From: Planctomycetota bacterium
GTDB lineage: Bacteria; Planctomycetota; UBA11346
Reading direction: 5' to 3'
Length of the DNA: 64,000 bases
NCBI GenBank assembly: GCA_038213805.1
Contig: JBBQSO010000008.1
Coordinates: forward strand, 1-64,000
Shown here: positions 451 through 62,059 of the stretch, piece by piece
How the letters are laid out: each line of letters begins with the position of its first letter
How positions within the stretch are numbered: the first letter of the stretch is position 1
The notes under the pieces: model-generated
Seen by the model: the letters and a program-made list of their open reading frames with translations, nothing else
The model's database searches: none
Told to the model about the DNA's origin: nothing
Position numbers and translations under genes: made by a program

Positions 451-467
451 TCTAGGGTCTAGGGTCT
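451..467. repeat. Heptamer tandem repeat (TCTAGGG)x2.4 next to the IS end
   Basis: tctagggtctagggtct read directly. Confidence 0.6.
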
Positions 468-468
468 T

Positions 469-1476
469 TCATTCCCGCCGAGTCAGCACCCCATCCGCGA
501 TCGCTCCCGCGAGGATCACCACGCCCATCACGGCAAAGGTCAGCGAGGTGTCCCAGCCGAGCAGGTTGACGAGGTTGGGGATGAGCTGGATGAGCACCAC
601 GCCCAGGACGATGCCGACCATCGAACCCTGGCCGCCGCGCAGGCTGCAGCCGGCGACCACCGCGGCGGCGATGCCGTAGAGTTCGTAGAAGTTGCCGTGG
701 TTGCTGGGGGTGATGCCGCCGCTGTCAAAGGCGAAGAGGATCGAGGACAGCGCCGCGGTCAGCCCGCACAGCACGTAGGCGCCGGTGATGACCAGGCCGG
801 TGCGGATGCCGGAGTGGCGCGCGGCTTCTTCATTGTGGCCGACGGCGTAGAGGTGGCGGCCGTAGACCGTGCCGTGCAGCAGCACGCCACCGGCGCCGGC
901 CACCACCAGCATCAACCAGAACGGCATCGGCACGCCGCACCACGCGCCGGTCAGGAATGCCTGCACGCCGTGAAAGCCCTCGCCCGTGCCAAAGCCCTTG
1001 CTGTTGTTGCCGGCGATGAACTGCGCGGTGCCGCGGTAGATGAGCAGGCCGCACAGGGTGACGATGAACGGCCACAGACGCAGACCGGTGATGAGCAGGC
1101 CGTGGCCGAGGCCGAGCAGCCCACCACAAGCGAGGATCAGGGGCAGCGCCAGCCACCACGCCACATGCCAATCGACAAGCAGGAAGCACTGCAGGATGCC
1201 GAGCAGCGCGAACAGCGAGCCCACCGACAGGTCGATGCCGCCGGTGATGATCACCAGGCCCAGCCCGACCGCGAAGATGCCGCTCATGCCGACGCGCCGC
1301 GCCAGGTTCTGCAGGTTCTGCCCGGTGAGGAACTGCGGGCTGGCCAGCGCCAGCGCGGTGCCGACCACCAGCAGCAGCCCGAGCACGGCGAGTTCGCGGC
1401 GCCACGGCGCCAGGCGCGCGGCGAGGGTCGGGGCGTGCGACGCCCGCAACGGAGGTGTGGGCTGGGGCTGGTTCAT
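469..1476 (-). CDS. Sugar ABC transporter permease (RbsC/CUT2 family)
   Basis: GGIDLSVG, YGRHLYAVGHNEEAARHSGI and YELYGIAAAVVAGCSLRGGQGS motifs; hydrophobic throughout. Confidence 0.95.
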   Translation of the reverse strand: MNQPQPTPPLRASHAPTLAARLAPWRRELAVLGLLLVVGTALALASPQFLTGQNLQNLARRVGMSGIFAVGLGLVIITGGIDLSVGSLFALLGILQCFLLVDWHVAWWLALPLILACGGLLGLGHGLLITGLRLWPFIVTLCGLLIYRGTAQFIAGNNSKGFGTGEGFHGVQAFLTGAWCGVPMPFWLMLVVAGAGGVLLHGTVYGRHLYAVGHNEEAARHSGIRTGLVITGAYVLCGLTAALSSILFAFDSGGITPSNHGNFYELYGIAAAVVAGCSLRGGQGSMVGIVLGVVLIQLIPNLVNLLGWDTSLTFAVMGVVILAGAIADGVLTRRE

Positions 1477-3002
1477 GGGACCTTCTCGGGCTCGCGGGCG
1501 ATGGCCAGGTGCATGACCGCCTCTTCAGTGATGGCGGCACCGACGAGGATGCCGGCGAGCGCGCCCTCGTGCATCACCGCCACGCGGTCGCTCTGGCCGA
1601 TGACCTCCTCCATGTCGGAGCTGATCATCAGCACCGCGGCGCCGGCCGCGGTGAGACGGCGCATCAGCGCGTAGATCTCGTGCTTGGCGCCGACGTCGAC
1701 GCCGCGCGTCGGCTCGTCGAGGATGATGACCTGGGGTGCGGTGGCCAGCCACTTGGCGAGTACCACTTTCTGCTGGTTGCCGCCGCTCAACCCCGCCGCG
1801 CGGGTTTCGCCCGAGGCGGTGCGGATGCCGAGCGCGGCGATGGCCGCGGCGCAGGCCACGCGCTCGCTGGATCGGCTGACCAGGCCGCGGCGCCGGTGGC
1901 GCTTCAGGGTCGCGAGAGTGACGTTCTCGCGCACCGCCATCGCCGTCACCAGGCCGGCGAGCTTGCGGTCCTCGGGCACCAGCGCGAGCCCGGCGCGGAT
2001 GGCATCGGACGGGCAGCGCACGCGCAGCGGCCGGCCGTCGAGGGTCAGGTCGCCGGCGAGCGCGCGGTCGATGCCGAAAACCGCGCGCGCCAGTTCGCTG
2101 CGTCCCGCGCCGACCAGGCCGGCAAGGCCGAGGACTTCGCCGCGGCGCACGTCGAGGTCGACCGTGTGCGCCGGCCAGGCCGCGGTGCGCAGGCCCCGGA
2201 TCACCAGGCCGCCGGCCCCAGCGGGTCCCACTGCGCGCGCCGGCGCAGGCGGCAGGTCGCGGCCGACCATCAGGCGCACCAGGTTGGCGTGGGTCAGCTC
2301 GCCGCCGGCCAGGGTGCCGGCGTTGCGGCCATCGCGCAGCACCACCGCGCGCCGGCAGCAGGCGGTCAGCTCGTGCAGGCGGTGCGAGATGTAGACCACC
2401 GCGTGCCCGTGCGCGGCGAGATCGGCGATGATCGCGAGCAGGCGCGCGGCCTCGGTAAGCGTCAGCGACGAGGTCGGCTCGTCCATGATGATCAGGCGCG
2501 CGTCCAGCGATAACGCCTTGGCGATCTCGACCAGCTGGCGCTGCGCCAGCGACAGGCGCGCGAGCGGCGTCGCCGGATCGAGGTCGAGGCCGACGCGCGC
2601 CAGGATCGGCGCGGTGGCGCGGCGCATGGCCGCGCGGTCGAGCAGCACGCCCGCGCGGCGCGGTTCGCGCCCGAGCAGCACGTTGCCGGCGATGTCGAGG
2701 TTGCCGAAGCCGTTCAGCTCCTGGTGCACGAAGGCGATGCCCAGGGCGGTGGCGGCGGCGACCGACGCGATGTGCGCCGGCCGCCCTGCGAAGCGGATCG
2801 TCCCGCCATCCGGGTGGTGCACGCCGCCCAGGATCTTCATCAGGGTGGATTTTCCCGCGCCGTTCTCGCCCATCAGCCCGACCACCTCGCCGGGAGCGAC
2901 GCTGAAGTCGACCCCGTGCAGGGCGGTGACGCCGGCGAAGCGCTTGACGATGCCGGTCATCTCCAGCAGCGGCGGTGCCGCCGCATCCGCGCCGGCCGCC
3001 AT
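1473..3002 (-). CDS. Sugar ABC transporter ATP-binding protein (RbsA/CUT2, two ABC domains)
   Basis: GENGAGKST Walker A, IIMDEPT, LSGGNQQKVVLAKW and LDEPTRGVDVGAK. Start placed at the ATG overlapping the upstream TGA (TGATG). Confidence 0.95.
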   Translation of the reverse strand: MAAGADAAAPPLLEMTGIVKRFAGVTALHGVDFSVAPGEVVGLMGENGAGKSTLMKILGGVHHPDGGTIRFAGRPAHIASVAAATALGIAFVHQELNGFGNLDIAGNVLLGREPRRAGVLLDRAAMRRATAPILARVGLDLDPATPLARLSLAQRQLVEIAKALSLDARLIIMDEPTSSLTLTEAARLLAIIADLAAHGHAVVYISHRLHELTACCRRAVVLRDGRNAGTLAGGELTHANLVRLMVGRDLPPAPARAVGPAGAGGLVIRGLRTAAWPAHTVDLDVRRGEVLGLAGLVGAGRSELARAVFGIDRALAGDLTLDGRPLRVRCPSDAIRAGLALVPEDRKLAGLVTAMAVRENVTLATLKRHRRRGLVSRSSERVACAAAIAALGIRTASGETRAAGLSGGNQQKVVLAKWLATAPQVIILDEPTRGVDVGAKHEIYALMRRLTAAGAAVLMISSDMEEVIGQSDRVAVMHEGALAGILVGAAITEEAVMHLAIAREPEKVP

Positions 3003-4000
3003 CACTTGCCGCGCAGCTTCTTCAGCTTGGCCGCGAAGGCCGCGACGTCGGCGGCGCGGATGGACTGGGTGGGGACGTAGATGTGCTTGTCGGCCGGGAT
3101 GAACGACGCATCGCCGCCGAGCTGGCGCGCGAGCAGCTTCAGCGACTGGTAGCCGAACTCGTAGGGCTGCTGCACGATGGTGCCCTGCACCGTGCCGGCG
3201 GTGATGCCGGCGAGGGTCTCGTCCTCCTCGTCGAAGGACACCACCTTGACCTTGCCGAGCTTGTCGGCGTCCTTCAGCGCGCTGAGGATGGCCGGGACGT
3301 TGTAGGCCCACAGCCCGACCATCCCGGCGACCTCGGGGTGGCTGACCAGGGTGTCGGCGGCGTTGGCCTTGGCGCGCGCGCGGTCACCGTCGTCGGCACG
3401 CAGGTCGAGGATGGTGACGTTGCTGCCGGTCAGCGCCTCCTTCAGGCCCTGGAAGCGCTCGATGGCGTTCTGCTGGTCCTTCTTGCCGACGAAGACCATG
3501 ATCGCGCCGCCGCCCGGCAGGGCCTCCTTGACCAACTCACCCGCGGCGCGGCCGGCGGCGACGTTGTCGGTGCCAAGGTAGTAGGCGCGCTTCGAGGCGG
3601 GCGCATCGCTGTCCTGGCAGATCAGCAGCGCCTTCTCCGCCGCCTGGTCGAGCATCGCGGTCTGGTTGCCGGCATCGACCGGACTGATGGCGATGCCGAC
3701 CGCGCCCTTCACCAGCAGGTCCTCGACGATCTCCTTCTGCTTGGCGGCGGTGCCGTCGCCGATGCGGAACTCGAGGGTGTAGCCCGGCAGCTCCTTCTGG
3801 GCCGCCTCGGCGCCGGCGCGCGCGAGGTTCCAGAAGTCGGCCGAGAGATTGGTGACGAAGCCCAGGGTACGCACCGGTGCGGCCGCGTTGGCGGCGCCCG
3901 GGGCAGCGGCGTGCGGGTCATCGCCGCAGCCGGCGAGCAGCAGCAGGGCGAGGGCGGCCAGGCCCAGGCCGGGGGCCGGGCGGGATGCGATGGGACTCAT
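3002..4000 (-). CDS. Sugar ABC transporter substrate-binding lipoprotein (RbsB-like)
   Basis: Lipobox LLAGC; GIAISPVD, YLGTDNVAAG and IVQQPYEFGY periplasmic-binding-protein type I motifs. Confidence 0.93.
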   Translation of the reverse strand: MSPIASRPAPGLGLAALALLLLAGCGDDPHAAAPGAANAAAPVRTLGFVTNLSADFWNLARAGAEAAQKELPGYTLEFRIGDGTAAKQKEIVEDLLVKGAVGIAISPVDAGNQTAMLDQAAEKALLICQDSDAPASKRAYYLGTDNVAAGRAAGELVKEALPGGGAIMVFVGKKDQQNAIERFQGLKEALTGSNVTILDLRADDGDRARAKANAADTLVSHPEVAGMVGLWAYNVPAILSALKDADKLGKVKVVSFDEEDETLAGITAGTVQGTIVQQPYEFGYQSLKLLARQLGGDASFIPADKHIYVPTQSIRAADVAAFAAKLKKLRGK

Positions 4001-4085
4001 GGGATTCTCCGGAAGGATGGCGGCGGCGATGCGCAGGACGATAGCGGCGGGTGGCGGCGGGGACAACCGCTCCTGGCCCGCCACG

Positions 4086-4973
4086 TCAAGACGGGTGTCG
4101 CTCAGCGACCAGCTGCGCACCGCCCTGGAAGATCTCCTCCAGGGCTAAACGCATTACACCGGGGTCCGGCTCGATCCCGGTCCAATACCGGATCCCTATG
4201 ACGCCTTGCCCGACCAGCATGGCCAAGCCGTCGACCACGCGGCAGCCACGCGCCTGGGCCGCGCGCAGCAGTCCCGTCACGGGCGGGTTGGGGATGACGT
4301 CGGCGACCACCATGCGCGGCCGCAGGGTGGTGACGTCGAGCGGCAGGCGCGCGTCGCCGAGCGGATGCAGGCCGATGGAAGTGGCGTTGACCACCAGGTC
4401 GACGTCGCCCGGGACGGCGTAGTCGCCGATCCACGCCACGCCCTCAGCGGCGACGCGCAGACGGGCGCGTAGCAATTCGACCAACTCGCGGCCGCGCTGT
4501 TCGCCGCGGTTGACGATGATGAACGAGGTCGCGCCGGCCAGGGCCAGCTCGACGGCAATCGCGCGCGCGGCTCCGCCGGCACCAAAAATGACCACGCGCT
4601 TGCCGGTGGGATCCGCCACGCCCCGCAGCGCCTGCAGGAAGCCCTTGCCGTCGGTGTTCTCGCCGATCAGGCGGTCGCCGCGCCGCACCACGCAGTTGAC
4701 CGCGCCCATCAGCGCCGCCGACTCGCCCAGGCCATCGAGGTGGGGGATGACCGCCAGCTTGTGCGGCTGCGTGCAATTGAAGCCGCGGAAGCCCATGGCG
4801 CGCGCACCGCGCACCGCGGCCGCGAGATCCGCCGGCGCGATCTCGAGGGTGAGGTAGCGCCAGGGCAGGCCGTGGTGACGGTAGGCCGCCTCGACCATCG
4901 GCTGCGACGGGTTCTCGGCGATCGGCTGGCCGAACACGCCGGTCAGCTCCTGCTTGAAGTTCGGGCTGCTCAT
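4086..4973 (-). CDS. aroE: Shikimate dehydrogenase-family oxidoreductase (non-canonical AroE paralog)
   Basis: GFNCTQPHK, GAVNCV, GENTDGKG, GAGGAARA, VNATSIG and DGLAMLVGQG. TGATG-coupled to the upstream gene. Confidence 0.85.
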   Translation of the reverse strand: MSSPNFKQELTGVFGQPIAENPSQPMVEAAYRHHGLPWRYLTLEIAPADLAAAVRGARAMGFRGFNCTQPHKLAVIPHLDGLGESAALMGAVNCVVRRGDRLIGENTDGKGFLQALRGVADPTGKRVVIFGAGGAARAIAVELALAGATSFIIVNRGEQRGRELVELLRARLRVAAEGVAWIGDYAVPGDVDLVVNATSIGLHPLGDARLPLDVTTLRPRMVVADVIPNPPVTGLLRAAQARGCRVVDGLAMLVGQGVIGIRYWTGIEPDPGVMRLALEEIFQGGAQLVAERHPS

Positions 4974-5926
4974 CAGCGCAGCGCCTCGCCGCCCAGGACT
5001 TTCCCGTCCGTCGCGAAAACGTGGAAATTGTGGATGTGGCCGCCGTCCTTCGGCGCGTAGGTCCACACTACTTTCTTATCGGGGGTGACCTCGAAGAGCT
5101 TGACCTCACCGGCGCCGCCGGCGGCGTAGCTGTTGATGATGGTGTTGCCGTTCGCCAGGCGCTGCACGCCGCAGGCGTCCTTGATGATGCCGCCCACGTC
5201 CTGGTTGGTGATCTCCCACACGCGCTTGCCCGAGGGTGCGAACTCGGCGACGGTGTTGGCGTGGGTCAGGCCCGCGAGGGTGTTGCCATCCGGCAGGCGG
5301 ATGGCGGTGAACGGCCAGGTCTCGGCGTGGTGCGCGCTGTCGCCGGGGGCGGTGGTGTCGATGGCGTCGAGCACTGTGCCGTCCTTGCCGTAGTGCTTGA
5401 TGGCGAAGGCCAGCAGGTGCGGCACCAGATAGGTGCCGTCGGGCTGCTTGCGCGCCATGCGCGTCTGCATGTGCGAGTTGTCGGTCTGCGGCTGCAGCGC
5501 GATCTCGACCAGCACCTTGCCGCTGGCGTCGAGCTCAAGCAGGCGCGGCTTGCGACCCTCCTCGGTCACGACGTAGGTGCCGGCGGGGGTCTTCTGCACG
5601 CTGGCCAGCTCGTCCTGGGTGCCTTTGTATTCCCAGACGATCTTACGCTCACGCGTCACCTCGATGGCGCCGCCGCCGGGATACGGGCCGCTCTTGCCGA
5701 TGGCGAGCAGCACGTTGCCGTCGGGCAGCACCCAGCCCTCGCGGCTGGGCAGCGGGTAGTCCCAGGTCATGGTGCCCGCCGCGCCGCCGCTGGCGCCCTC
5801 GATGATCATGGTGTGGTCGCCGGTGGCGAGGAAGGAGTGGCTGGGCGCGGCGGCGTCCGCCGCGCGGGCGCACGGCGCAGCCAAGCAGGCGGAGGCGGCG
5901 AGCAGGAAGGCGAGAGGCTGGCGCAT
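4973..5926 (-). CDS. Secreted beta-propeller protein (PQQ/arylsulfotransferase-like repeats)
   Basis: Signal peptide; repeated LPDGNxL...ExxxxxKxVW blades. Confidence 0.75.
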   Translation of the reverse strand: MRQPLAFLLAASACLAAPCARAADAAAPSHSFLATGDHTMIIEGASGGAAGTMTWDYPLPSREGWVLPDGNVLLAIGKSGPYPGGGAIEVTRERKIVWEYKGTQDELASVQKTPAGTYVVTEEGRKPRLLELDASGKVLVEIALQPQTDNSHMQTRMARKQPDGTYLVPHLLAFAIKHYGKDGTVLDAIDTTAPGDSAHHAETWPFTAIRLPDGNTLAGLTHANTVAEFAPSGKRVWEITNQDVGGIIKDACGVQRLANGNTIINSYAAGGAGEVKLFEVTPDKKVVWTYAPKDGGHIHNFHVFATDGKVLGGEALR

Positions 5927-7333: not shown

Positions 7334-7505
7334 CCGGATAGAACAGGAGGCGCGGAGACGCGGAGAACGGAGGAGGACGAAGTGCGAAGGCTCCGAATCA
7401 TCCAGTCAGCAGGCGCCGGAACCTGCATGAGGCGCGGGTCGTGGATCGACCCAACCGTCTGGTCGCCGCCTCTCCCCTCCGCGTCTCCGCGGCTGTTTTA
7501 TCCGG
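7334..7505. repeat. Inverted-repeat element with (GCGGAGAC)2 arms
   Basis: ccggatagaacag...gcggagacgcggag (7334-7365) versus ctccgcgtctccgc..ctgttttatccgg (7477-7505), between convergent genes. Confidence 0.75.
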
Positions 7506-9454: not shown

Positions 9455-9512
9455 GAGGGTCCGGAAGTCCGGAAGTCCGGAAGTCTCACGAACCCACATT
9501 GGCACCGCTCCC

Positions 9513-11381
<1,869 letters not shown>

Positions 11382-13004: not shown

Positions 13005-13329
13005 GAGCCCGCGGAGGCGGGCGGAAGAAAATAGCCCACGGCGCGAGCCCTGGGAGCACCGCGAAATATCGGATTTCCAAGCCCGCGGACGCGGGCGGCA
13101 GCAGTTCTTCCGCAATCGTCCCGCAACAATAGCGGCGTGTGCCCAGCATCGCTGACGGGATCAGGAAACGGAATCTCTTACGGTCCGCGATTCCTGCCGG
13201 ACGGGGGTCGAACCGTCGCCATGGGCATGTGCCGGCAGGAATCGCGGACCGTAAGAGATGGGATTGTTTTCGCTTCAATTCCCAGGGCTCACGCCCTGGG
13301 CTAATTTCTTCCGCCCGCTCCGCGGGCTC
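13005..13329. repeat. REP/MITE-like element with ~50-bp imperfect terminal inverted repeats
   Basis: gagcccgcggaggcgggcggaagaaaatagcccacggcgcgagccctggga (13005-13055) versus tcccagggctcacgccctgggctaatttcttccgcccgctccgcgggctc (13280-13329); partial third arm at 13079-13101. Confidence 0.85.
13173..13259. repeat. Perfect 28-bp inverted repeat with a 31-nt loop, nested inside the REP-like element
   Basis: atctcttacggtccgcgattcctgccgg (13173-13200) and ccggcaggaatcgcggaccgtaagagat (13232-13259). Confidence 0.92.
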
Positions 13330-13386
13330 ATTGCATGCGGATTTGGCGTCATTTTCGTGACTTAAAACTCGCGCCTGTCGGCGCGC

Positions 13387-13449
13387 AACTCGGGACTCGG
13401 GACGCGCGACGCGCGACGCGCGACGCGCAGCCCACAGCGCGCAGCGCAG
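13387..13449. repeat. Heptamer tandem array with a drifting unit (GACTCGG to GACGCGC x4 to AGCGCGC)
   Basis: aactcgg gactcgg gacgcgc gacgcgc gacgcgc gacgcgc agcccac agcgcgc agcgcag. Confidence 0.8.
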
Positions 13450-13567
13450 GTCTCAGGTACAGTGACGGGTGACGAGTGAATCGCGGCACACTCCACCCAG
13501 CCCGACGTACATGACCCAGTTCACTGATCACAGGTCGCGCGACTTGCAACTCACTGCCTACTCCGTC

Positions 13568-16462: not shown

Positions 16463-16490
16463 AAGCGGGAAGCGCGAAGCGCGAAGCGGA
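16463..16490. repeat. Heptamer tandem repeat (AAGCGCG)x4, degenerate
   Basis: aagcggg aagcgcg aagcgcg aagcgga. Confidence 0.7.
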
Positions 16491-19533: not shown

Positions 19534-19652
19534 GTCCGGAAGTCCGGAAGTCCGGAAGTCCGGAAGTCGGAGACACGTGAGCGCGGCACGATGCTCGTCG
19601 TAGTCCTGCGCCCTCGCAGCACGACACCTCCGGACTTCCGGACTTCCGGACT
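19534..19652. repeat. GTCCGGAA inverted-tandem element, copy B
   Basis: (GTCCGGAA)4 at 19534-19565, a 62-nt core, and (TTCCGGAC)3 at 19628-19651 touching the ruvX stop codon. Confidence 0.92.
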
Positions 19653-20126: not shown

Positions 20127-20253
20127 GAGTGCGGAGTGCGGAGTGACCGTGCCATTGAAGACGCAGTGTTCCCCTGAGTGGCCCTCCATGCAAAATGCCG
20201 ACCTTTGCACAACGGCGACATGTCATCCAACGGTCACTCCGCACTCCGCACTC
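20127..20253. repeat. GGAGTGC inverted-tandem element, copy 1 (perfect 24-bp IR, 79-nt core)
   Basis: gagtgcggagtgcggagtgaccgt (20127-20150) and acggtcactccgcactccgcactc (20230-20253). Confidence 0.92.
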
Positions 20254-20327
20254 CGCGCCGAACTATCGCACCCCGCACCCCTACAGAACCCGCCCATGGC
20301 GCCCCCCCAGCCTCCAGCTATGTTTCC

Positions 20328-20689
20328 AGCTCGCCGCCAGACGGCCGCGTCCGGCGCAAGCCGGCCGAGGAAAGTCCGGGCTCCACAGGGCACAGTGACT
20401 GGTAAATCCAGCCGTCTCCAGTTGCAGGGGGATAGGGACAGTACAACAGAAAGCGAACCGCCTGCGCCGGGCAACCGGCGTCGGTAAGGGTGAAAAGGCG
20501 GGGTAAGAGCCCACCGCTCCCTCCGCAAGGCGGGAGGCATTGCAAACCCCACTGGGAGCAAGCCCAGACCGTGGCGAGGTGCTGCCCGCACCATTTGAGC
20601 CGCGAGTAGGGCGCATGAGGGCCGGCCGCAAGGCCGGCATCGAGAGAAATGGCCGTCCTCGACAGGACCCGGCTTATCGGCGGCCTCTG
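20328..20689 (+). ncRNA. rnpB: RNase P RNA (type A)
   Basis: GAGGAAAGTCCGGGCTCC, ACAGAAA, AGGGTGAAAAGGCGGGGTAAGAGCCCACC, GCAAACCCC..GGGAGCAAG, AGAGAAATG and ACAGGACCCGGCTTA universal motifs. Ends are approximate. Confidence 0.97.
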
Positions 20690-20746: not shown

Positions 20747-20838
20747 AGCGAGCAGCGAGCAGCGAGCAGCGAAGAAACTGCATGGTGATTCCCGCGTTGA
20801 CCGGTCTTTTCTCGCAACTCGCAACTCGCAACTGGCAG
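20747..20838. repeat. Heptamer arrays (AGCGAGC)3 and (CTCGCAA)3, partly complementary
   Basis: Arrays at 20747-20774 and 20811-20838; the GCGAG and CTCGC cores pair. Confidence 0.7.
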
Positions 20839-24116: not shown

Positions 24117-24271
24117 GTGCGGAGTGCGGAGTGCGGAGTGCGGAGTGCGGAGTGCGGAGTGCGGAGTGCAGAGTGACCATTCGAAGGCACGATGCCCGTC
24201 GTCACACGTGCGCATTTTTCAAAAGGTTGTGTGGGACCCACCCGGTACCGTGATATTCACGGTCACTCCGC
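24117..24271. repeat. GGAGTGC inverted-tandem element, copy 2 ((GGAGTGC)7+, 78-nt core, short right arm)
   Basis: 24121-24169 perfect units ending gagtgaccat (24180); acggtcactccgc at 24259-24271. Confidence 0.9.
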
Positions 24272-34424: not shown

Positions 34425-35447
34425 ATGTCCCACCCCCTCGCCGCCCCCCTCGCCTTCACGCCCGCCTACCAGAATGTCGTCTGGGGTGGCCGGCGCATGG
34501 AGCAGTGGCGCGCCGATCTGCCGGCAGGTCCGATCGGGGAAAGCTGGGACCTCGCCGATCACGAACGCGGCATGAGTGTGGTTGCCGGCGGCCCGCTCAC
34601 GGGGCGCACGCTGCGCGACCTGACCAACGCGTTTCCCAGGGAACTGGTCGGCGCCGGCTTCGCCGGCGGCGCCTTCCCGCTGCTGGTCAAACTCATCGAC
34701 GCCAACGACCGGCTCTCGGTGCAGGTCCATCCTGATGACCGCCTGGCGCGCGAGATGCGCCTCGGCGAACGCGGCAAGACCGAGTGCTGGCTGATGCTCG
34801 ACGCGGGTGGCGAACTCTACGTCGGCACCCGTCCGGGGTGCGACCGCGCACGCTTCGAGGCGGCGCTGGCCGCCGGCCACGTTGCGGATGAACTCAACCG
34901 CCACCGCGCGCACGACGGCGACTTCTACTTCCTGCCGGCGCGCACCGTGCATGCCCTGGGCGCGGGCTGCCTGCTGTACGAGGTGCAGCAGACCTGCGAT
35001 GTGACCTTCCGCGTCGACGACTGGGGGCGCGTCGGCCTGGATGGGAAACCGCGCCCGCTGCACATCCCGCAGTCGCTCGAAACCATCGACTTCGCTGCCA
35101 CCGGCACCTGGCCCGCGACGACGCGCGAGACCGTGCACCGCGACGGCGGCAGCGTGCGCCGCTTGGGCGCGTGCCCCTACTTCGCGGTCGAGGAGCGGCG
35201 CGCCGGCATCACCAGAGGTGGCGACGGCGAAACCTGCTCGATCGTAGTCTGCCTCGCCGGCCACGGCACTCTCGCCACCGCCGGCGGCAGCGTTGCACTC
35301 GCACCGATGCGCACCTGCCTGGTCCCAGCCATCGCCGGCACCTGGACCGCCACCGCCGCGCACCTGGAGTCGCTCAGACTGCTGGTGGCGACGCCGGGTT
35401 CGGGAGGTCCGGAAGTCCGGAAGTCCGGAAGTCCGGAAGTCTCGTAG
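34425..35447 (+). CDS. manA: Class I mannose-6-phosphate isomerase (C-terminus derived from a repeat)
   Basis: VWGGRR, IGESW, FPLLVKLIDANDRLSVQVHPDD, GKTECW, TVHALG and EVQQ. Confidence 0.92.
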   Translation: MSHPLAAPLAFTPAYQNVVWGGRRMEQWRADLPAGPIGESWDLADHERGMSVVAGGPLTGRTLRDLTNAFPRELVGAGFAGGAFPLLVKLIDANDRLSVQVHPDDRLAREMRLGERGKTECWLMLDAGGELYVGTRPGCDRARFEAALAAGHVADELNRHRAHDGDFYFLPARTVHALGAGCLLYEVQQTCDVTFRVDDWGRVGLDGKPRPLHIPQSLETIDFAATGTWPATTRETVHRDGGSVRRLGACPYFAVEERRAGITRGGDGETCSIVVCLAGHGTLATAGGSVALAPMRTCLVPAIAGTWTATAAHLESLRLLVATPGSGGPEVRKSGSPEVS

Positions 35448-35567
35448 GACGGGTCACTCCCGGCTCCCTGGGGCCGCAGCGTCAGCAGGGTTTTATCGGC
35501 CTGCACCCCTTCCAACCACCGCACCACGAGACTTCCGGACTTCCGGACTTCCGGACCTCCGGACTTC
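35407..35567. repeat. GTCCGGAA inverted-tandem element, copy C
   Basis: (GTCCGGAA)4 at 35407-35438, a 94-nt core, and (TTCCGGAC)4 at 35533-35564. Confidence 0.93.
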
Positions 35568-40306: not shown

Positions 40307-41692
40307 ATGACGCCGTCCGCCGCAACCGAAGCCGAGCCTCTCATCCCGGTGTTGCCTGCGCGCACCGTGTACATCGAGACCTTCGGCTGCCAGATGAACT
40401 TGGCCGATACCGAGGTCGTGCTCGCGCGCCTGGGTGAGGCGGGCTACCGCCGCGTCGACGAGGTCGAGCAGGCCAGCCTGGTGCTGTACAACACCTGCGC
40501 GGTGCGCGACCACGCCGAGGCCAAGGTGCGCGGCCGGCTCGGCGCGCTCAAGGGCCTCAAGCGCCGACGTCCCGAGCTCAAGATCGGCATCATGGGCTGC
40601 ATGGCGCAGCGCGAGAAGGAGCAGCTGCTCGCCGCCTACCCGCACGTCGACCTGGTGGTCGGCACCGACCAGTTCGTGCGCATGCCGCAGCTGCTTGACC
40701 AGCTCGAGGACCACGGCCGCCTCGCCGCCACCGGCTTCGGCGACTTCGAGGATCGGATGTGGAGCGCGACGCGTTCCTCGGGGGTCAACGCCTGGGTGCC
40801 GATCATGCGCGGCTGCAACTACAACTGCACCTACTGCGTGGTGCCATTCACGCGCGGCCGCGAGAAGTCGCGCGCGCCAGCGCAGATCGAGGACGAGGTC
40901 CGGCGCCTGGTCGACGAGGGCTTCGCCCAGGTGACGCTGCTCGGCCAGACCGTCGATTCCTATGGCAAGACCCTGGGCGACGGCACCACCCTGGCCGCGC
41001 TGTTGCGCCGCGTGCACGCCATCGACGGGCTGAAGCGCCTGCGCTTCGTCACCAGTCATCCCAAGGACATCACTGACGAGCTGCTCGACACCATGGCCGC
41101 GCTGCCCAAGGTCGCGAAGCACCTGCACGTGCCGGCGCAGTGCGGCAGCGACCGCATCCTGCGCCTGATGGGCCGGCGCTATTCGCGCGACGACTACCTG
41201 GACATGGTGCGGCGCGCCCGCGCGCGCATGCCGGAAATCGAGCTCCTCACCGACCTCATCGTCGGCTTCCCGCGCGAGACGGACGAGGATTTCGCGCAGA
41301 CCGTGGCGCTGATGGAGGAGGTGCGCTTCGCCGGCGCCTACGTGTTCATGTACTCGCAGCGCCCGGACACGCCCGCCGCCAACCTCTCCGACGATGTGCC
41401 CATCGAGATCAAGAAGGCGCGCTGCAACCACCTTCTCGACCTGCAGCTCATCCACCAGGGCCAGGCCTACGCGCCACTCACCGGCCGCGTCCTGCAGGTG
41501 CTGGTCGAAGGCCCGAGCAAGAGCGACGAGGCCATGCTGCACGGCCGCTCGCTCGGCAACCTCAACATCGTCTTCCCGCGCGTGGACGCCGCTGGTGCCG
41601 GACGCGATGACCTGATCGGTCAGCTCGTGGACGTGCGTATCCAGCGCTCGACGAGTTTGACGTTGTTCGGGGATTTGACGGCTGATAGCTGA
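40307..41692 (+). CDS. miaB: tRNA-2-methylthio-N6-dimethylallyladenosine synthase
   Basis: ETFGCQMN, NTCAVR, GCMAQ, radical-SAM CNYNCTYC, TSHPKD and a TRAM domain. Confidence 0.95.
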   Translation: MTPSAATEAEPLIPVLPARTVYIETFGCQMNLADTEVVLARLGEAGYRRVDEVEQASLVLYNTCAVRDHAEAKVRGRLGALKGLKRRRPELKIGIMGCMAQREKEQLLAAYPHVDLVVGTDQFVRMPQLLDQLEDHGRLAATGFGDFEDRMWSATRSSGVNAWVPIMRGCNYNCTYCVVPFTRGREKSRAPAQIEDEVRRLVDEGFAQVTLLGQTVDSYGKTLGDGTTLAALLRRVHAIDGLKRLRFVTSHPKDITDELLDTMAALPKVAKHLHVPAQCGSDRILRLMGRRYSRDDYLDMVRRARARMPEIELLTDLIVGFPRETDEDFAQTVALMEEVRFAGAYVFMYSQRPDTPAANLSDDVPIEIKKARCNHLLDLQLIHQGQAYAPLTGRVLQVLVEGPSKSDEAMLHGRSLGNLNIVFPRVDAAGAGRDDLIGQLVDVRIQRSTSLTLFGDLTADS

Positions 41693-41864
41693 TGGCTGAT
41701 GGCTGATGGCTGATGGCTGATGGCTGATGGCTGATTGAACCCAGCGTTGATCCCAAGTTTCAGTGTTATGCTGAGGATGTCCCCTGGAGTTCAGCCGCTC
41801 TGATGTCCTGAAGCGCCGTGTCTGAACCATCAGCTAGCAGCCATCAGCCATCAGCCATCAGCCA
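41680..41864. repeat. GGCTGAT inverted-tandem element ((GCTGATG)8, ~90-nt core, (CATCAGC)4-5)
   Basis: Arrays at 41681-41736 and 41827-41864; the left array supplies the miaB stop. Confidence 0.92.
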
Positions 41865-42798
41865 CCGCCGACAAGCGGTTGCAGTCCCGCCCTTCACCCC
41901 CACCCACTCCCCCACCCCCAAGCCCCCCGCCGTCGTCGCCCACAATGGCCGCGGCAACCCCCCAGCCCAAGCCACCGTCAGCGTGCTCGATCTCGGCTTC
42001 CTGCGTGGCGTCGGCGCCTTTGAGACCCTGCGCACCTACGCCGATGGCCTGCCGCACCTGCTCGGCGAACACCTGCGCCGCATCTGGGAGAGCGCCGCCG
42101 CCTTCGGCCTGGCGCCATTCTTCAGCGAGGCCGAGGTGCGCCGCCTGATCGGCGAGATCCACCGCCGCAGCGGCCACGGCGAGCTGCGCGTCAACCTCAT
42201 CGTCACCCCGGGTGAAAACACCTCCGGGGTGTTCGGCGCGGAGCGGCCGACCTGGGTGATGATCGCGCGCGAGGTGCACGCGCCGCCGGCGGAGCTGTAC
42301 GAGCAGGGCGTCACGGCGGTGACCTTCGACGCCACCCGCCACCTGCCGACGCTGAAGACCACCAACTACCTGGTCGGCAAGACCGGCCTGCTGCTGGCGG
42401 ACCAGCGCGGCGCGCACGAGGCATTCTACGTCGATCCCGCCGGCTACGTCACCGAGGGCGTGACCAGCAACGTGCTGGTGGTGCGCGGCGGTCGGGTGAT
42501 GACGCCGGTGCAGGACTGCCTGCCGGGCATCACCAAGGCCGGCCTACGCCCGGTCGCCGAGGCCGCCGGCCTGGCCTGGTACGAGTGCAACCTGACGCGC
42601 GATGACGTCTACACCGCCGACGAGGTGTGGATCACCTCCGCCGTGCGCGAACTGCTGCCAGTGGTGAAGGTCGACGACCGCGCCATCGGCCACGGCGGCG
42701 TCGGGCCGTGGGCGAAGCGCCTGCGCCCGCTCTACCACCAGCGCTGCATCGCCGAGGCGCGGCGCGACGCGGTGGCCGCGACGGCCGCCGCCGGCTGA
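41818..42798 (+). CDS. PLP-dependent aminotransferase class IV (IlvE/Dat/PabC-like); start uncertain
   Basis: DLGFLRGVGAFETLRTY, HLRRI, LKTTNYL (PLP Lys), EGVTSN, LPGIT and ADEVWITS. Confidence 0.88.
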   Translation: MSEPSASSHQPSAISHRRQAVAVPPFTPTHSPTPKPPAVVAHNGRGNPPAQATVSVLDLGFLRGVGAFETLRTYADGLPHLLGEHLRRIWESAAAFGLAPFFSEAEVRRLIGEIHRRSGHGELRVNLIVTPGENTSGVFGAERPTWVMIAREVHAPPAELYEQGVTAVTFDATRHLPTLKTTNYLVGKTGLLLADQRGAHEAFYVDPAGYVTEGVTSNVLVVRGGRVMTPVQDCLPGITKAGLRPVAEAAGLAWYECNLTRDDVYTADEVWITSAVRELLPVVKVDDRAIGHGGVGPWAKRLRPLYHQRCIAEARRDAVAATAAAG

Positions 42799-42843
42799 TG
42801 GCTGATGGCTGATGGCTGGCAGCCGACGGCTGACGGCAGATGA
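42793..42843. repeat. (GGCTGAT)3 followed by drifting heptamers, between the aminotransferase and truD
   Basis: ggctgat ggctgat ggctgat ggctggc agccgac ggctgac ggcagat; contains the upstream TGA and a possible truD ATG. Confidence 0.85.
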
Positions 42844-48237: not shown

Positions 48238-48242
48238 CAGTA

Positions 48243-48352
48243 CGGAAGTCCGGGGTCCGGACGTCCGGAAGTCTCGTTTGACGGGATGCCTCGTGGATTC
48301 CAACGATGGTGGTCGATCGCGGCTGTCCGACTTCCGGACTTCCGGACCCTCC
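48243..48352. repeat. GTCCGGAA inverted-tandem element, copy D
   Basis: Degenerate units at 48243-48270, a 61-nt core, and (TTCCGGAC)2 at 48332-48347. Confidence 0.88.
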
Positions 48353-50880: not shown

Positions 50881-51021
50881 ATCATCGCCAAGACGCCAAG
50901 GGGACGACAGGAGAGAGCATCGGTCTGAAGTCCCGCATGCTCATGTACATCCTGCTCACCTATCAGACCGCGTCTTATACATCGACGGCCCTTGGCGGGC
51001 TGGGCGTCTAGGCGGCTTGAT
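50881..51021. repeat. Inverted element with (CGCCAAGA)2 arms
   Basis: atcatcgccaagacgccaagg (50881-50901) versus ccttggcg..ctgggcg tctaggcg..ttgat (50990-51021); inner IR cggtctga/tcagaccg. Confidence 0.65.
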
Positions 51022-55230: not shown

Positions 55231-55358
55231 GTCCGGAAGTCTGGAAGTCCGGAAGTCCGGAAGTCGGACAGCCTTGCGGAACCAGTGATCGCTGGGGGGC
55301 ACGGACGATCCCGTCCCACGAGACTTCCAGACTTGCGGACTTCCGGACCTCCGGACCC
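55231..55358. repeat. GTCCGGAA inverted-tandem element, copy E
   Basis: Four units at 55231-55262, a 62-nt core, and four units at 55325-55356. Confidence 0.92.
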
Positions 55359-56361: not shown

Positions 56362-56365
56362 GGCG

Positions 56366-57898: not shown

Positions 57899-57954
57899 GG
57901 CATCAAGGTCTGGAGCGGTTGCGCGGGGACAAGGGGATCATCGCTGGGTGCGAA

Positions 57955-58106
57955 GTCCGGAAGTCCGGAAGTCCGGAAGTCTCAGCGAACGCGATGTCAT
58001 GGGCGAACCGCTGCGATGACGCTGGAATGCTATCCCACGCGGCGGAATGGGGCCGACCCGGTACTCATGGACTTCCGGACTTCCGGACTTCCGGACTTCC
58101 GGACCC
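57955..58106. repeat. GTCCGGAA inverted-tandem element, copy F
   Basis: (GTCCGGAA)3 at 57955-57978, a 94-nt core, and (TTCCGGAC)4 at 58073-58104 inside the 3' end of the transglutaminase gene. Confidence 0.93.
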
Positions 58107-59531
58107 GCCGGCGGCCCCGCCGCCGAGCGTCTCGATCTGCTTGCCGGCGAGCCCGACCAGATTGGCGACCATCAGCGCCCCGGTATTCCGCCACTCTCCG
58201 CCTGAGTTGGTCGCGAGTTTGAGGTAGCAGCTGCGCGGGATGCCGGGATACGCGCTGTCGAGATGCACCCAGCGCCCACCAATGTAGGCGCTGTTCCAGG
58301 CGTGGCCGACCCAACCGCCGAAGTCCGCCGCGAAGACCAGGCCATCCTCGACGCGCGCCGGGATGCCGGCGATGCGCAGGGCGGCGCAGAGCAGGTTGGC
58401 GTGCTCGGTGCAGTCGCCGGTGCGCGTGCGGAAGGCTTCGAGCGCCGAGGCGTCGCCCTTGCTCAGGTCCTTGGTGGTGATGTGGCCGCGCACCGCCAGG
58501 CGCAGCTGCTCGGCGAGATCGGCCTGATCGGCCTCGTGCCCCTTGGCGACGCCCTGCACCCAGGCGCGCAGCGCCGCATCATCGGTTTCGAGCTGCGGCG
58601 TGGCGCGCAGCAACGGCGCGGGATCGGCGAGGGGCGCTGGCGCAGCGCGGGCAGTGACGGTCACCACGCCATCCGCCAGGTGCTGGAACTCGTCCTCGGC
58701 GACGGTGCCACCAGGCGGCATGCGGTAGCGGTTGACCGGGCCGGCGGCGGGCGCGGGGCCGCGAGCATCGACCAGACCGGTCGGGGACAACTCGGCGCCC
58801 TCGAGCGGAACCGGACCGGGACTGGGGAGCAGCTCCAGCACCATCGGTCCGATGCTCAGGCCGACGCCAGCGAGTTGGCCCGTCGGCGTGACGGTGGTCG
58901 ACATCGGGATCGGCATCTGGTCCATCAGCATGGTGAAGACCAGGTTCCCGGCCGGGGTGGTGCGTACGAAGGTCGCGGTGATATCGACGATCTGCACCTG
59001 GTTGCCGAGCAGGTTGATACCCGAAAAGCGTTCCTGCTGGCCGGCCTTCCATGGGTGCGCGACGAGCAGCTCCTGTCCGGCCTGCTGGCCGAGCAGGCGC
59101 GTGCCGGGCGGAATGGGCAGGCGCTGCTCGGTGGTGCGATCGAGGTGATGGACAGTGGCGACCACCTCGTCGCCCACCACCTTGCCGACCGCACTGGTGG
59201 TCTCGCCACCCTCGACGTGGTCGAAGTGGAACGCGACGATGCGGCCGTCGGCACCATCGACATAGGCCTGGGACTCGCGCGTCTCGAAGCGCATGGCGGA
59301 GGCGCCGAGGGTGCGTGAGATCAGGAAGACCATCTCCGAGGTGTCGCTGCGCGTCCCATCGGCGTGCTTCGTCACCGCCGCATGGATGGTCATCGCCGGC
59401 TGCGCGTTGAGCCTGCCGACGAACCACAGGTCCGACTCCAGCACGTCGCTCTCAGCCGCTGCCAGAGCGCCGCAGAGCAGCAGGACGGCGTGGAGGCGGC
59501 AGACAGCAGGCAGCATGCGGAAAATGGGCAT
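58065..59531 (-). CDS. Secreted transglutaminase-like protein
   Basis: Signal peptide; catalytic triad GDCTEHA / GHAW / WVHLD. Confidence 0.88.
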   Translation of the reverse strand: MPIFRMLPAVCRLHAVLLLCGALAAAESDVLESDLWFVGRLNAQPAMTIHAAVTKHADGTRSDTSEMVFLISRTLGASAMRFETRESQAYVDGADGRIVAFHFDHVEGGETTSAVGKVVGDEVVATVHHLDRTTEQRLPIPPGTRLLGQQAGQELLVAHPWKAGQQERFSGINLLGNQVQIVDITATFVRTTPAGNLVFTMLMDQMPIPMSTTVTPTGQLAGVGLSIGPMVLELLPSPGPVPLEGAELSPTGLVDARGPAPAAGPVNRYRMPPGGTVAEDEFQHLADGVVTVTARAAPAPLADPAPLLRATPQLETDDAALRAWVQGVAKGHEADQADLAEQLRLAVRGHITTKDLSKGDASALEAFRTRTGDCTEHANLLCAALRIAGIPARVEDGLVFAADFGGWVGHAWNSAYIGGRWVHLDSAYPGIPRSCYLKLATNSGGEWRNTGALMVANLVGLAGKQIETLGGGAAGGSGSPEVRKSGSP

Positions 59532-59628
59532 GGGTGGCTCCGCATGCCATGATGGCGTCTGCCGATTCACCAGGAAGGCCGGAGATGGGGAGGCGTGACA
59601 GCGGCGCCCGTGGGGATTTCGCGACTCC

Positions 59629-60123
59629 TCAGGCGAGCGGCCACTCCAACCGCCCCTCCCACTCCGGATCCCGACCCGCCTGGATCGAGTCCATGGCGCG
59701 GTTGGTCAGCGCATCGACGCGCTCGTTCCCAGGATTCCCCGCGTGCCCCTTCACCCATTGCCAGCGCACCGTGTGCTGCTGGGTGAGCACGTCGAGCTCC
59801 TTGAGCAGGTCGACGTTCTTGAGCGGGCCGTCCTTCTTTTTCCAGCCCTTGGCCTTCCAGCCGGGCATCCACTCGCTCACCGACTTGATCAGATATTGGC
59901 TGTCGCTGTGGATCAGCACCGCCAGCCCCGGCTTGCGCAGCGAGCGCAGGCCCATGATCGCGGCCAGCATCTCCATACGGTTGTTGGTGGTCTCGCGCTC
60001 GCCGCCGCAGCGCTCGAGCGCCTGATGGCTGAGCGGATTGATGGCCAGGAAGCCCCAACCGCCCGGCCCGGGGTTACCACGGCAACCGCCGTCGGTGTAG
60101 AGGACGACGTCGGGCTGGGTCAT
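59629..60123 (-). CDS. rnhA: Ribonuclease HI
   Basis: YTDGGCRGNPGPGG, TTNNRME, SDSQY, KNVDL and WVKGHAG..GNERVD. Confidence 0.96.
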   Translation of the reverse strand: MTQPDVVLYTDGGCRGNPGPGGWGFLAINPLSHQALERCGGERETTNNRMEMLAAIMGLRSLRKPGLAVLIHSDSQYLIKSVSEWMPGWKAKGWKKKDGPLKNVDLLKELDVLTQQHTVRWQWVKGHAGNPGNERVDALTNRAMDSIQAGRDPEWEGRLEWPLA

Positions 60124-60839
60124 GGGGCCACCTCGTCCGCATCCGCCCAGGCGAGTCCTGGGGGCAGCGGCGCAGCGCACCATTCGACGTGCAGGACGCG
60201 CCGCTGTCCAGGGGCGAGCGCCGGCGCGGAGGCGTGCAGCAGCAGCGGATGGACGGCGAGAACCTCGCCACGCGCTGCCGTCAGGAAGCTGCGCGGAACG
60301 CGTGCGCACCAGCGCTGGATGCCGTCGGCCTCGAGCGGACCGTCGCGGTGCGAGCCCGGCAGCACCTCCAGCGGTGCGTTATCCGCGCCGCAGTCGTCCA
60401 AGTGCAGGCGCAGGGCCAAGCGCTGGACGCTGTGCAGGTCCGGCAGGCGCACATGCGGGCGGCCGTCTTTGATCGACCACAGTACCCAGCCGGGCAGGTC
60501 GAGGCGCGCGCGCAGCGGCGCCGTCAGGTCCTGGTGCCAGGGCACGCGCCAATTGGCCTCCGGCTGCTTATCGAACAGCACCGCGCTGATCGCCGCCGCT
60601 CCGGGCGCAAGCAACGCCGCGACGACAGCCTGGACCGGCGCACAGCGCACCCATGCGGCGACCGCCGGCAGGGCCAGCAGGTCGCGCGCCGCGTAGGCCG
60701 CGCGTCCCGGGCGCTGGTGACGCGAAGTCGCCAAAGTCAGGGCCGACACCAGGTCGTTGAGCTGCGCAGGAGTGACCAAGCCGGTCAACAGGGCATGACC
60801 AGCGCTCTGGTATGCGTCCCTTACAGCCGCCTCAACCAT
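60120..60839 (-). CDS. Phytanoyl-CoA dioxygenase-family Fe(II)/2OG enzyme
   Basis: FDK...ANWRVPWHQD, RLHLDD, LPGSH, LLHAS and RRVLH. Confidence 0.88.
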   Translation of the reverse strand: MVEAAVRDAYQSAGHALLTGLVTPAQLNDLVSALTLATSRHQRPGRAAYAARDLLALPAVAAWVRCAPVQAVVAALLAPGAAAISAVLFDKQPEANWRVPWHQDLTAPLRARLDLPGWVLWSIKDGRPHVRLPDLHSVQRLALRLHLDDCGADNAPLEVLPGSHRDGPLEADGIQRWCARVPRSFLTAARGEVLAVHPLLLHASAPALAPGQRRVLHVEWCAAPLPPGLAWADADEVAP

Positions 60840-62001
60840 CGGCGGGAACAGTCTCTTCCGGGGCCTTGTCGGCGTACCCAGCACGGAAGCGCGCCGCAAA
60901 CTCCGCGCTGCGGCCGGCGCGGATCGCGGCGCGCAGCCGCGCCATCAGCTGGCGGTAGTAGGCGAGGTTGTGCACGCTGAGCAGCTGCCCGCCAAGGATC
61001 TCGCCGCTTTTCAGCAGGTGATGGAGGTAGCCGCGCGACACCCGGCTGGCCTGGCTCGCCGTGCCCGCGTCGAGCGGTGCGGTGTCGCCCGCGAACTCGC
61101 CGCGCTTGACGCGCAGAGGACCATGGTCGGTATAAGCGATGCCGTGACGGCCCATGCGCGTGGGCAGCACGCAGTCGAACTGGTCGATGCCGCGCACCAC
61201 CGCCTCGACCAGGTCGAGCGGCGTGCCCACGCCCATCAGGTAGCGCGGCTTGGCCGCCGGCAGCAGCCCGGCCATCCAGTCGAGCACACGCAGGCGGTCG
61301 GCAAACGTCTCGCCCACCGCCAGGCCGCCGAGCGCATAACCGGGCAGGTCGTGCGTCAGGGCGTCGGCGAGCGAGGCCTCGCGCAGGTCGCGGTGCAGGC
61401 CACCCTGGATGATGGCGTAGAGCGCCTGGCTGGTGGCGCCGCCGGGCAGTGCGGCAGTGGCCGGCGCGCGCCACGCCGCGACCGAGCGCGCCAGCCACAG
61501 CGCGGTGCGGCGGTTGCAGGCCTCGACCGCGTCGCGCGCGGCGTCGGCCGGCGGGCACTCGTCGAAGGCCATGATGATGTCGGCGCCAAGCAGGCGCTGG
61601 ATGCGCACGCTTTCCTCGGGGGTGAGCAGGAAGGGCGCGCCGTCAAGATGGCTGCGGAAGGCCACCCCCTCGTCGCTGATCTTGCGCTGCGCGGCCAGGC
61701 TGAACACCTGGTAGCCGCCGGAATCGGTGAGCATCGGCCCGCGCCACCCGGTGAAGGCGTGCAAGCCGCCGAGGTCGTGCACGCGCTGCGCGCCCGGGCG
61801 CAGTGCGAGGTGGTAGGTGTTGCACAGCATCACACCCTGGCCGAGTTCCTCGGCCTGCTGCACGGTCACGCCCTTGAGGCCGCCGAGAGTGGCGACCGCC
61901 ATGAAGCAGGGCGTGGGCACGCGGCCGTGCGGGGTCTCAAGCACGCCAGCGCGCGCGGGGCCGTCAGTCGCGACCACTGAAAAGCCGAGCGGCCCGTTCA
62001 C
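60832..62001 (-). CDS. tgt: tRNA-guanine transglycosylase (bacterial type); start approximate
   Basis: TPCFM, NTYHL, TDSGGYQVFSL, AFDEC, IQGG, GGLAVGE, PRYLMGVG and DQFDCVLPTR. Confidence 0.95.
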   Translation of the reverse strand: MNGPLGFSVVATDGPARAGVLETPHGRVPTPCFMAVATLGGLKGVTVQQAEELGQGVMLCNTYHLALRPGAQRVHDLGGLHAFTGWRGPMLTDSGGYQVFSLAAQRKISDEGVAFRSHLDGAPFLLTPEESVRIQRLLGADIIMAFDECPPADAARDAVEACNRRTALWLARSVAAWRAPATAALPGGATSQALYAIIQGGLHRDLREASLADALTHDLPGYALGGLAVGETFADRLRVLDWMAGLLPAAKPRYLMGVGTPLDLVEAVVRGIDQFDCVLPTRMGRHGIAYTDHGPLRVKRGEFAGDTAPLDAGTASQASRVSRGYLHHLLKSGEILGGQLLSVHNLAYYRQLMARLRAAIRAGRSAEFAARFRAGYADKAPEETVPADG

Positions 62002-62024
62002 GAACGTGATCTCCGCACAGCGCC

Positions 62025-62059
62025 GCACTCCGCACTCCGCACTCCGCACTCCGCACACG
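62025..62059. repeat. Solo (GCACTCC)4-5 heptamer array
   Basis: Same unit as the arrays at 20127 and 24121; lies between the SpoIID stop and the tgt start. Confidence 0.88.

Follow-up and report, generated by a model that had tools for sequence, protein, structure and literature searches.

The DNA considered here is a 64,000-nt window, meaning the whole stretch that was analysed, which corresponds to contig C8 of a Planctomycetota assembly of 5.5 Mb in 180 contigs (labelled G000, the genome studied; C-numbers denote its contigs). Its intergenic spaces carry a series of short elements in which a tandem array of a 7- or 8-nt unit, a short loop and a reverse-complement array follow one another, and at other places in the genome some of these arms surround small genes. 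Arrays were detected with Tandem Repeats Finder (TRF), exact arrays were counted from at least three copies, and neighbouring arrays of the same unit were taken as a pair when separated by a gap of 40-140 nt. Gene contexts were derived from a rough gene caller based on G+C content at third codon positions (GC3), which predicted 3785 genes. Relatives and other genomes used for comparison are labelled G003, G005, G006, G007, G010, G012 and G020. Every array named in an earlier, sequence-only reading of this DNA was found by TRF where that reading had placed it, and the design it described is visible in the sequences.

Pairs with the unit GTCCGGAA lie at 9459-9581, between co-directional genes and 5 nt past a TAG stop; at 19534-19652, where the right arm touches the stop codon of a minus-strand gene; at 35403-35567, between convergent genes; and at 48239-48347, 55231-55356 and 57952-58104. 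A GGCTGAT pair of 8.6 and 5.4 units (41676-41864) begins immediately past a TGA stop, and a GGAGTGC pair (20127-20256) is located upstream of the RNase P RNA gene. Another element, with GCGGAGNC arms and inventoried under the unit GCGGAGAC, has its arms at 7338-7376 and 7466-7505, the right one detected by inverted-repeat search only; the first 20 nt of its left arm, ATAGAACAGGAGGCGCGGAG (7338-7357), are identical to the arm of a gene-bearing cassette on C28 that is described below. A degenerate CGCCAAGA / CTTGGCG pair lies at about 50885-51020, these coordinates being approximate. Downstream of the RNase P RNA gene, AGCGAGC and CTCGCAA arrays occupy 20747-20837; their membership is doubtful because the arms are only partly complementary and the fold is no better than that of shuffled sequence (z -0.99; 29 of 200 shuffles equally good), whereas five other pairs of the window, folded as single-stranded DNA, gave z-scores of -3.65 to -7.76, and no shuffle out of 200 folded equally well. 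The bacterial RNase P RNA gene itself (Rfam RF00010, 219.7 bits; 20333-20688) is bracketed by the array elements at 20127-20256 and 20747-20837.

Solo arrays are present as well: GTCTAGG x2.6 at 450-467, AAGCGCG x3.7 at 16463-16488, GTGCGGA x8.4 at 24117-24175, GGCTGAT at 42792-42837 (42793 in the partner search) and CCGCACT x4.9 at 62023-62056, and no inverted partner was found within 260 nt of any of these. GTGCGGA and CCGCACT both belong to the GGAGTGC family, which in the window amounts to one pair and two solos, not to the two elements and one solo counted from the sequence alone. A solo complex of CGCGCGA x6.7, CGCGCAG and AGTGACG occupies 13382-13479, and 54 nt upstream of it lies a match to the Acido-Lenti-1 small RNA (13281-13328; RF01687, 49.2 bits, gathering score 37). 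The first unit of the GGCTGAT solo (42792-42798) provides the stop codon of the upstream gene; a GGCTGAT array contains TGA and therefore closes all forward reading frames within three units. This solo is kept in G010, and its counterpart in G003 is a stretch of 13 nt containing a single GGCTGAG.

Frequency and architecture across the genome

Exact arrays of at least three copies number 79 at period 6, 411 at period 7, 89 at period 8 and 13 at period 9 in the 5.5-Mb genome, a sharp enrichment at periods 7 and 8 which extends to the whole genome the rule of 7- or 8-nt units that had been proposed from the window. AGCCATC (GGCTGAT) accounts for 209 of the 772 exact period-7/8 arrays, AAGTCCGG (GTCCGGAA) for 129, ACCCTAG for 53 and ACTCCGC (GGAGTGC) for 48. 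TRF reported 977 arrays with a 7- or 8-nt period, and their same-unit pairs were inverted in 193 cases and direct in 2, which is far from random and agrees with the proposal of a single architecture built from many units; 519 of the 977 arrays lie outside such pairs. Polarity was inward in 89 of 89 GTCCGGAA pairs and 61 of 61 GGCTGAT pairs, and likewise in 17 of 17 and 13 of 13 pairs of the next two families, (GTCCGGAA)n invariably forming the left arm and its complement the right one. Over the 250 pairs used for the polarity count, each family with more than two members had a single arrangement.

Removal of overlaps left a set of 229 paired elements, in which arm length peaks at 30-40 nt (4-5 units), loops have a median length of 83 nt (interquartile range 71-103) and the median total length is 155 nt. 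They lie between co-directional (117), convergent (50) or divergent (30) genes, inside a predicted gene (17) or at a contig end (15), at a median distance of 7 nt from the neighbouring stop codon (n=217) and 58 nt from the neighbouring start. Most of the 17 'in-gene' cases were dismissed as artefacts of the gene caller; two appear real, and uvrA alone is confirmed. In uvrA a GTCCGGAA element of 126 nt (C5:13069-13194) separates, in frame, the UvrA interaction domain from the DNA-binding domain, where it would add 42 residues to the protein, and a GGAGTGC element of 168 nt (C16:63044-63211) is a candidate in-frame insert in a 1500-codon open reading frame (ORF). The arrays also corrupt ORF calls and break short-read assemblies, contigs of this 90%-complete assembly ending at arrays. 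A family can thus be described as two inward arms of about 30-50 nt made of a 7/8-nt unit, sometimes with a short non-periodic part on the outer or inner side.

Small genes enclosed by the same arms

The sequence-only reading had suggested that four-helix-bundle and GxxExxY genes are often flanked by such arrays, and in this genome three of the five genes of PF05635 (the four-helix-bundle, rRNA intervening-sequence protein family) and the sole GxxExxY gene are enclosed. It had also stated that the window holds no candidate mobiliser gene, and all matches to PF05635, TIGR04256 and PF13366 indeed fall on other contigs. One PF05635 gene lies on C19 within the opp operon, between (GGCTGAT)5.9 and (ATCAGCC)4.4; another lies on C29, between (GTCCGGAA)4.4 and (TTCCGGAC)4.5 with guaB and guaA as neighbours; and the third, on C115, has (GCTTCTC)10.6 on one side and an arm that contains GAGAAGC on the other. 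The only TIGR04256 (GxxExxY) gene, on C28, is identical with the PF13366 (PDDEXK_3) match and encodes a PD-(D/E)XK protein. It is enclosed by inverted arms starting ATAGAACAGGAGGCGCGGAG, the 20-mer also present as left arm at 7338 in the window. An 18-mer from this arm has 81 genome copies at up to 2 mismatches (reversed-pattern control, 0), and these 81 GCGGAGNC arm copies form 28 inward pairs and no outward pair. Between the gene-less GCGGAGNC copies and the C28 cassette similarity extends over no more than 50 nt of arm, and the loops are unique. The units around the enclosed PF05635 and GxxExxY genes are those of the gene-less families: a PF05635 gene belongs to the GGCTGAT, GTCCGGAA and GCTTCTC arms and the PF13366/TIGR04256 gene to the GCGGAGNC arms. 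The pattern per genome is one gene-bearing copy and tens of copies with a short loop only.

No further gene family was seen enclosed likewise among same-unit inverted pairs with a gap of 260-1100 nt; a HAD hydrolase gene between two arrays on C58 was considered as a cassette and taken instead as lying between two neighbouring elements. The GTCCGGAA-armed PF05635 ORF (L005:1477-1917, 146 codons) extends into its right arm, where the repeat encodes the last ~14 residues. About 150 nt upstream of the PF05635 genes on C6, C9 and C115 look alike by eye and share a GTCCTTGAC-containing stretch, which could be a common leader or promoter. The one entry for 2GSC, a solved relative of PF05635, contains five chains; PMC3424549 lists PF13366 as 'function unknown'.

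Across the genomes compared, GTCCGGAAx3 is present in 7 of 21, all of one genus, and GGCTGATx3 in 4 of 21. PF05635 matches range from 0 to 19 per genome within the family and reach 52 in the distant G020, and in the relatives inverted heptamer arrays, with units particular to them, stand on both sides of many PF05635 genes. At the 11 loci with clean arms among 34 examined, protein identities of 0.95 and 0.85 went with the same unit, an identity of about 0.6 with a unit distance of 2 (GTCCGAT versus GTCCGGG), and identities below 0.45 with a mean unit distance of 3.2. G010 carries an 89%-identical orthologue with GTCCGGAA arms and the same neighbouring genes as in G000, and G007 a 41%-identical protein with GTCCGGG arms. 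Sampling covered at most 100 kb of each genome, taken as five stretches or fewer, none longer than 20 kb. Six genomes without a PF05635 match yielded 2 arrays and no pairs in 297 kb, and in 605 kb from nine genomes with matches there were 50 arrays, with 14 pairs.

Outside these relatives, exact (GTCCGGAA)3.4 arrays occur singly, beside housekeeping genes, in Bacteroidota, Actinomycetota and one Pseudomonadota metagenome-assembled genome (MAG); no PF05635 gene was found within 400 nt of these arrays in the 48 of 99 ORFs scanned (17 loci). G020, of 9.3 Mb and 35% G+C in the samples, holds many PF05635 matches with a single in-frame TGA or with TGA plus TAG, and its near-identical copies resemble a family of scattered genes that are broken or recoded.

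Divergence of arms, loops and occupied sites

Across 30 genes, the third codon positions of G000 and G010 agree at 86.8%, and 14 orthologous element loci with flanks at least 88% identical were compared between them. Thirteen are filled in both genomes and one, 55231, is empty in G010. Of the 13 loops, ten are homologues that keep the same orientation, with 0.60-0.81 identity, and two, at 19534 and C44:26644, are unrelated and differ in length. At 48239 the loop is inverted relative to G010 (0.65 identity when inverted against 0.48 direct; shuffle 95th percentile 0.50) between collinear arms and flanks, as expected of recombination between inverted arms. Homologous loops include those at 20127 (0.71) and 57952 (0.72) and that at 35403, where G010 has the same arms and inner ends; a first impression that the 35403 loops were unrelated was ruled out by global alignment (0.67). 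Nine array-free spacers compared likewise are 0.80-0.96 identical; no class measured, spacers and third codon positions included, changes faster than the loops. Fast loop change alone, with arms staying near consensus, could erase the similarity between old paralogous copies, and the arms would then seem to be under constraint.

Occupancy and unit also differ between relatives, and the presence/absence differences for which a comparison of empty sites had been proposed do exist; together with the excess of inverted pairs they run counter to chance co-occurrence of solo arrays and to a lack of strain polymorphism, the two outcomes that had been named as fatal to the proposal. The 55231 element is missing from G010 and G003, and gain in G000 is indistinguishable from loss in G010 because G010 also lacks the next 11 nt, both histories needing equally many events. 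The 19534 site is empty in G003, which has about 20 other nt there, and G010 holds an element with a different loop and a different junction. At 55231 and 19534, the sole two junctions with an empty-site comparison, there is no target-site duplication, as the sequence-only reading had noticed. The 9459 element has counterparts in G010, G003 and G007, the arms in G007 being of the 7-mer variant GTCCGGA. In G003 an element of a different unit holds the 20127 site, a GCAGAGN-armed element the 48239 site and a GAGACGC-type element the 57952 spacer; the 41676 spacer contains a GGGTGCG/GGAGTGC composite in G010 and other arrays in G003. The unit differs in 5 of the 6 spacers shared with G003 and is the same in 6 of the 7 shared with G010. 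Spacers occupied in G000 were occupied in G003 in 6 of 10 cases and unoccupied ones in 5 of 19 (p = 0.11, not significant), and preferential reuse of the same spacers was accordingly set aside. Logan contigs from 4 DNA runs break at arrays and yielded nothing on empty sites.

Within G000 the arms are shared and the loops are not. No other genome match was found for 209 of 225 loops, and in blastn-short comparisons within families most loops remained singletons. The mean best local-alignment score between loops was 23.3 against 22.3 for shuffled sequence in the GTCCGGAA family and 25.4 against 21.5 in the GGCTGAT family; 5 of 81 and 12 of 50 loops, respectively, exceeded the shuffled 99th percentile, marginally except for one pair, and residual homology between the loops of one family is accordingly weak. 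Loops were also considered as a special kind of sequence and this idea was dropped, their composition (64% G+C) and fold z-scores being those of ordinary intergenic DNA. Recurrent loop ends are limited to the 5-8 nt beside the arms, the deeper loop not being conserved: TCGTG was found at 38 and GACAGCC at 21 of 172 inner ends, where hand-estimated chance expectation is about 6 and under 1. The non-periodic arm part of the GCGGAGNC family, GAACAGGAG, recurs in 81 copies, and one complex G003 arm is identical at two loci whose loops differ. Since non-periodic parts and complex arms recur and inner-end motifs are enriched, the arms are best regarded as copies and not as products of independent slippage. 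Mirroring of variant units between the two arms of one element was examined and rejected, as own-arm complementarity hardly differed from that with arms of other elements (GTCCGGAA, 0.856 versus 0.844, p = 0.08; three other families, p = 0.40-0.65).

Searches with single loops gave a similar picture. Two G010 loops had no match in G000, the 55231 loop had none in 10 other genomes of the genus except for a 23-nt arm-end match, and G000 loops compared with 98 loci of other MAGs matched (4 cases) at orthologous places only.

Known systems and competing explanations

Heptamer tandem repeats in bacteria have been known since about 1990 and are without explanation. In Xanthomonas campestris and X. 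citri, intergenic GGGAATC heptamer arrays form convergent pairs, with one array per strand, in 70 and 75 cases; lengths vary, and the two species mostly agree in solo or pair type (Rehm et al. 2015, PMC4692102). A single G-rich unit is considered there, with a quadruplex or stem-loop under discussion; 'intervening' is absent from the text, and the arrays are not tied to any gene family. Common to both cases are many intergenic heptamer arrays and frequent close convergent pairs; here, in distinction, there are many unrelated units, a measured polarity and arms common to gene-bearing cassettes. Convergent heptamer pairs are therefore already published, and the gene link was not found in the literature searched, which held no paper connecting such arrays with PF05635 or GxxExxY genes. 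Other heptamers, the short tandemly repeated repetitive (STRR) sequences of heterocystous cyanobacteria and the TAACTGA repeats of Beggiatoaceae, are described as abundant, intergenic and of unexplained origin, TAACTGA with 169 direct sets and one indirect (PMC4679880). On that description those are mainly direct arrays, in contrast to the inverted pairs found here.

The repetitive extragenic palindromic (REP) doublets known as REPINs, with their REP-associated tyrosine transposase (RAYT), offer a closer parallel: Bertels and Rainey reportedly described in 2011 a lineage-specific system of a single-copy gene flanked by its own repeat and many gene-less intergenic hairpin doublets. The plan of a single-copy gene plus tens to hundreds of gene-less hairpin doublets is common to both, but in this genome a four-helix bundle and a small PD-(D/E)XK protein stand in place of a Y1 transposase, tandem units make up the arms, and the middles are unshared. 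The foldback (FB) transposons of Drosophila have inverted repeats of short tandem sub-repeats, variable arms and a heterogeneous middle, and a minority of them carry genes; the resemblance is one of design only, as FB elements are eukaryotic and much longer and have unrelated proteins. Like MITEs (inverted-repeat transposable elements of miniature size), the present elements have terminal inverted repeats; unlike them, they lack a target-site duplication at 55231 and 19534, and their interior is not derived from a transposase-encoding element. As regards invertible promoter switches (invertons), 1 of 13 orthologous loops is inverted between G000 and G010. The 23S rRNA intervening sequence of Coxiella burnetii occurs with or without an S23p/PF05635 ORF (PMC4990558). 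Both it and the present elements have a long closing stem and a loop holding a PF05635 gene or nothing, whereas every window copy has protein or RNase P genes as its neighbours and none is placed in 23S helix 25 or 45.

Because these arms also surround small genes at other places in the genome, we lean, on balance, towards the view that the elements are gene-less members of hairpin ('foldback') small-gene cassette families. Recognition and upkeep would be limited to the arms: the small protein would read its own periodic arm, as hairpin or duplex, and, together with host replication or repair functions, would spread or maintain arms in trans, as RAYT does for REPINs. The loop would be unconstrained filler that drifts, flips or gets replaced, and elements would persist where they do least harm, past stop codons or, when in frame, where a protein loop tolerates them. 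As with rRNA intervening sequences, stems of 25-40 bp would, if transcribed, be putative targets of RNase III. We put forward tentatively, as a possibility, that each protein recognises the arm of its own cassette and works in trans. The broader proposal, that two 'function unknown' families (PF05635 and PF13366) propagate or maintain their own gene-less arms in trans, in a RAYT-REPIN-like partnership free of a transposase, is a little more doubtful again.

Of the sequence-only reading, the shared, non-random architecture stands, and its dedicated generating or mobilising mechanism goes beyond what these comparisons give. Its idea of non-autonomous deletion derivatives did not find support, for the loops match neither the cassettes nor one another, and the elements are hence not simple deletion derivatives. 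Its unit-adding enzyme has one anecdote in its favour, the GGCTGAT solo at 42792, in whose place G003 carries one GGCTGAG at the stop codon, and is contradicted by the non-periodic arm parts that are identical at many loci.

Several observations weigh against the cassette explanation that we favour. Two of the five PF05635 genes, on C6 and C9, are without clean arms; neither PF05635 nor PF13366 has a known transposition activity; loops and cassettes have nothing in common; and donors sought in the genome and its relatives were found for no loop. Of the four large families, CTAGGGT and GGAGTGC yielded no copy with a gene in the 90%-complete assembly. The relatives are kin, and counts across genomes are therefore not independent. 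PF05635 gene count and array density are not significantly correlated (rank correlation rho 0.25, p 0.36): G012, with 19 matches, had 1 array in 76 kb, and G020, with 52, had none in 100 kb. A close orthologue of the GTCCGGAA-armed protein was not found in G005, which has 89 GTCCGGAAx3 matches, and neither a PF05635 match nor a close orthologue was found in G006, which has 41 and is 62% complete.

Much of this would suit an explanation in which the small genes are passengers, mere cargo which such hairpins are prone to carry or shield, between arms that are moved or maintained by another host or mobile function. With loops that are arbitrary single-copy sequence, a gene is possibly just another loop, and the two large families that lack a gene-bearing copy, the arrays of G006 and the nearly array-free samples of the PF05635-rich G012 and G020 all fit; yet only PF05635 and GxxExxY families were seen enclosed, protein similarity follows unit similarity, genomes without PF05635 matches had 2 arrays per 297 kb, and the RAYT-type genes inspected, 2 of 5, are not enclosed by arrays. 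We regard the passenger explanation as rather unlikely. The last observation bears equally on REP/REPIN elements mobilised by a RAYT (Y1 HUH transposase), which would agree with hairpin doublets in intergenic DNA and with the five PF01797 matches in the genome; but the two best PF01797 genes of the five have no flanking 7/8-nt arrays, the copies are without a common middle part and the arms are tandem units in place of a REP palindrome, so that such mobilisation seems very improbable.

Arrays might instead grow in place, a seed being expanded by slippage or by a unit-adding enzyme and copied across by a hairpin strand switch, with nothing moving. Variation in copy number between orthologous arms, the 519 of 977 arrays that are unpaired and the 42792 solo are in keeping with this, but identical non-periodic arm parts and complex arms at many loci, recurrent inner-end motifs, strict polarity, and empty sites in relatives that lack the loop as well as the arms make it improbable. 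A shade less probable still are host regulatory hairpins (terminators, RNase III processing sites or insulators) under selection for RNA structure. The stems are stable, the median distance to a stop codon is 7 nt (n=217), and 117 of 229 elements lie between co-directional genes; in those 117 contexts, however, fold energy did not differ between sense and antisense (60 versus 56; p = 0.36) and G-T pairs were not enriched on the sense strand, and selection on the stems at the RNA level was rejected on that ground. Moreover, 30 elements lie between divergent genes, one is in frame within uvrA, and families and occupied sites differ between close relatives. A regulatory reading is compatible with co-option of single copies.

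If the broader proposal of a transposase-free partnership is true, it would account for the excess of 7/8-nt repeats in many bacteria, STRR and the Xanthomonas GGGAATC arrays among them, and for the origin of rRNA intervening sequences. Heptamer repeats and the PF05635 and GxxExxY/PDDEXK_3 families have all lacked an explanation, and this genome gives a testable clue, as at least three of its repeat families, side by side, each share arms with a single gene-bearing cassette. The measurable rules that emerge (polarity, arm length, free loops, position at stop codons and occasional in-frame residence) lend themselves to concrete experiments.

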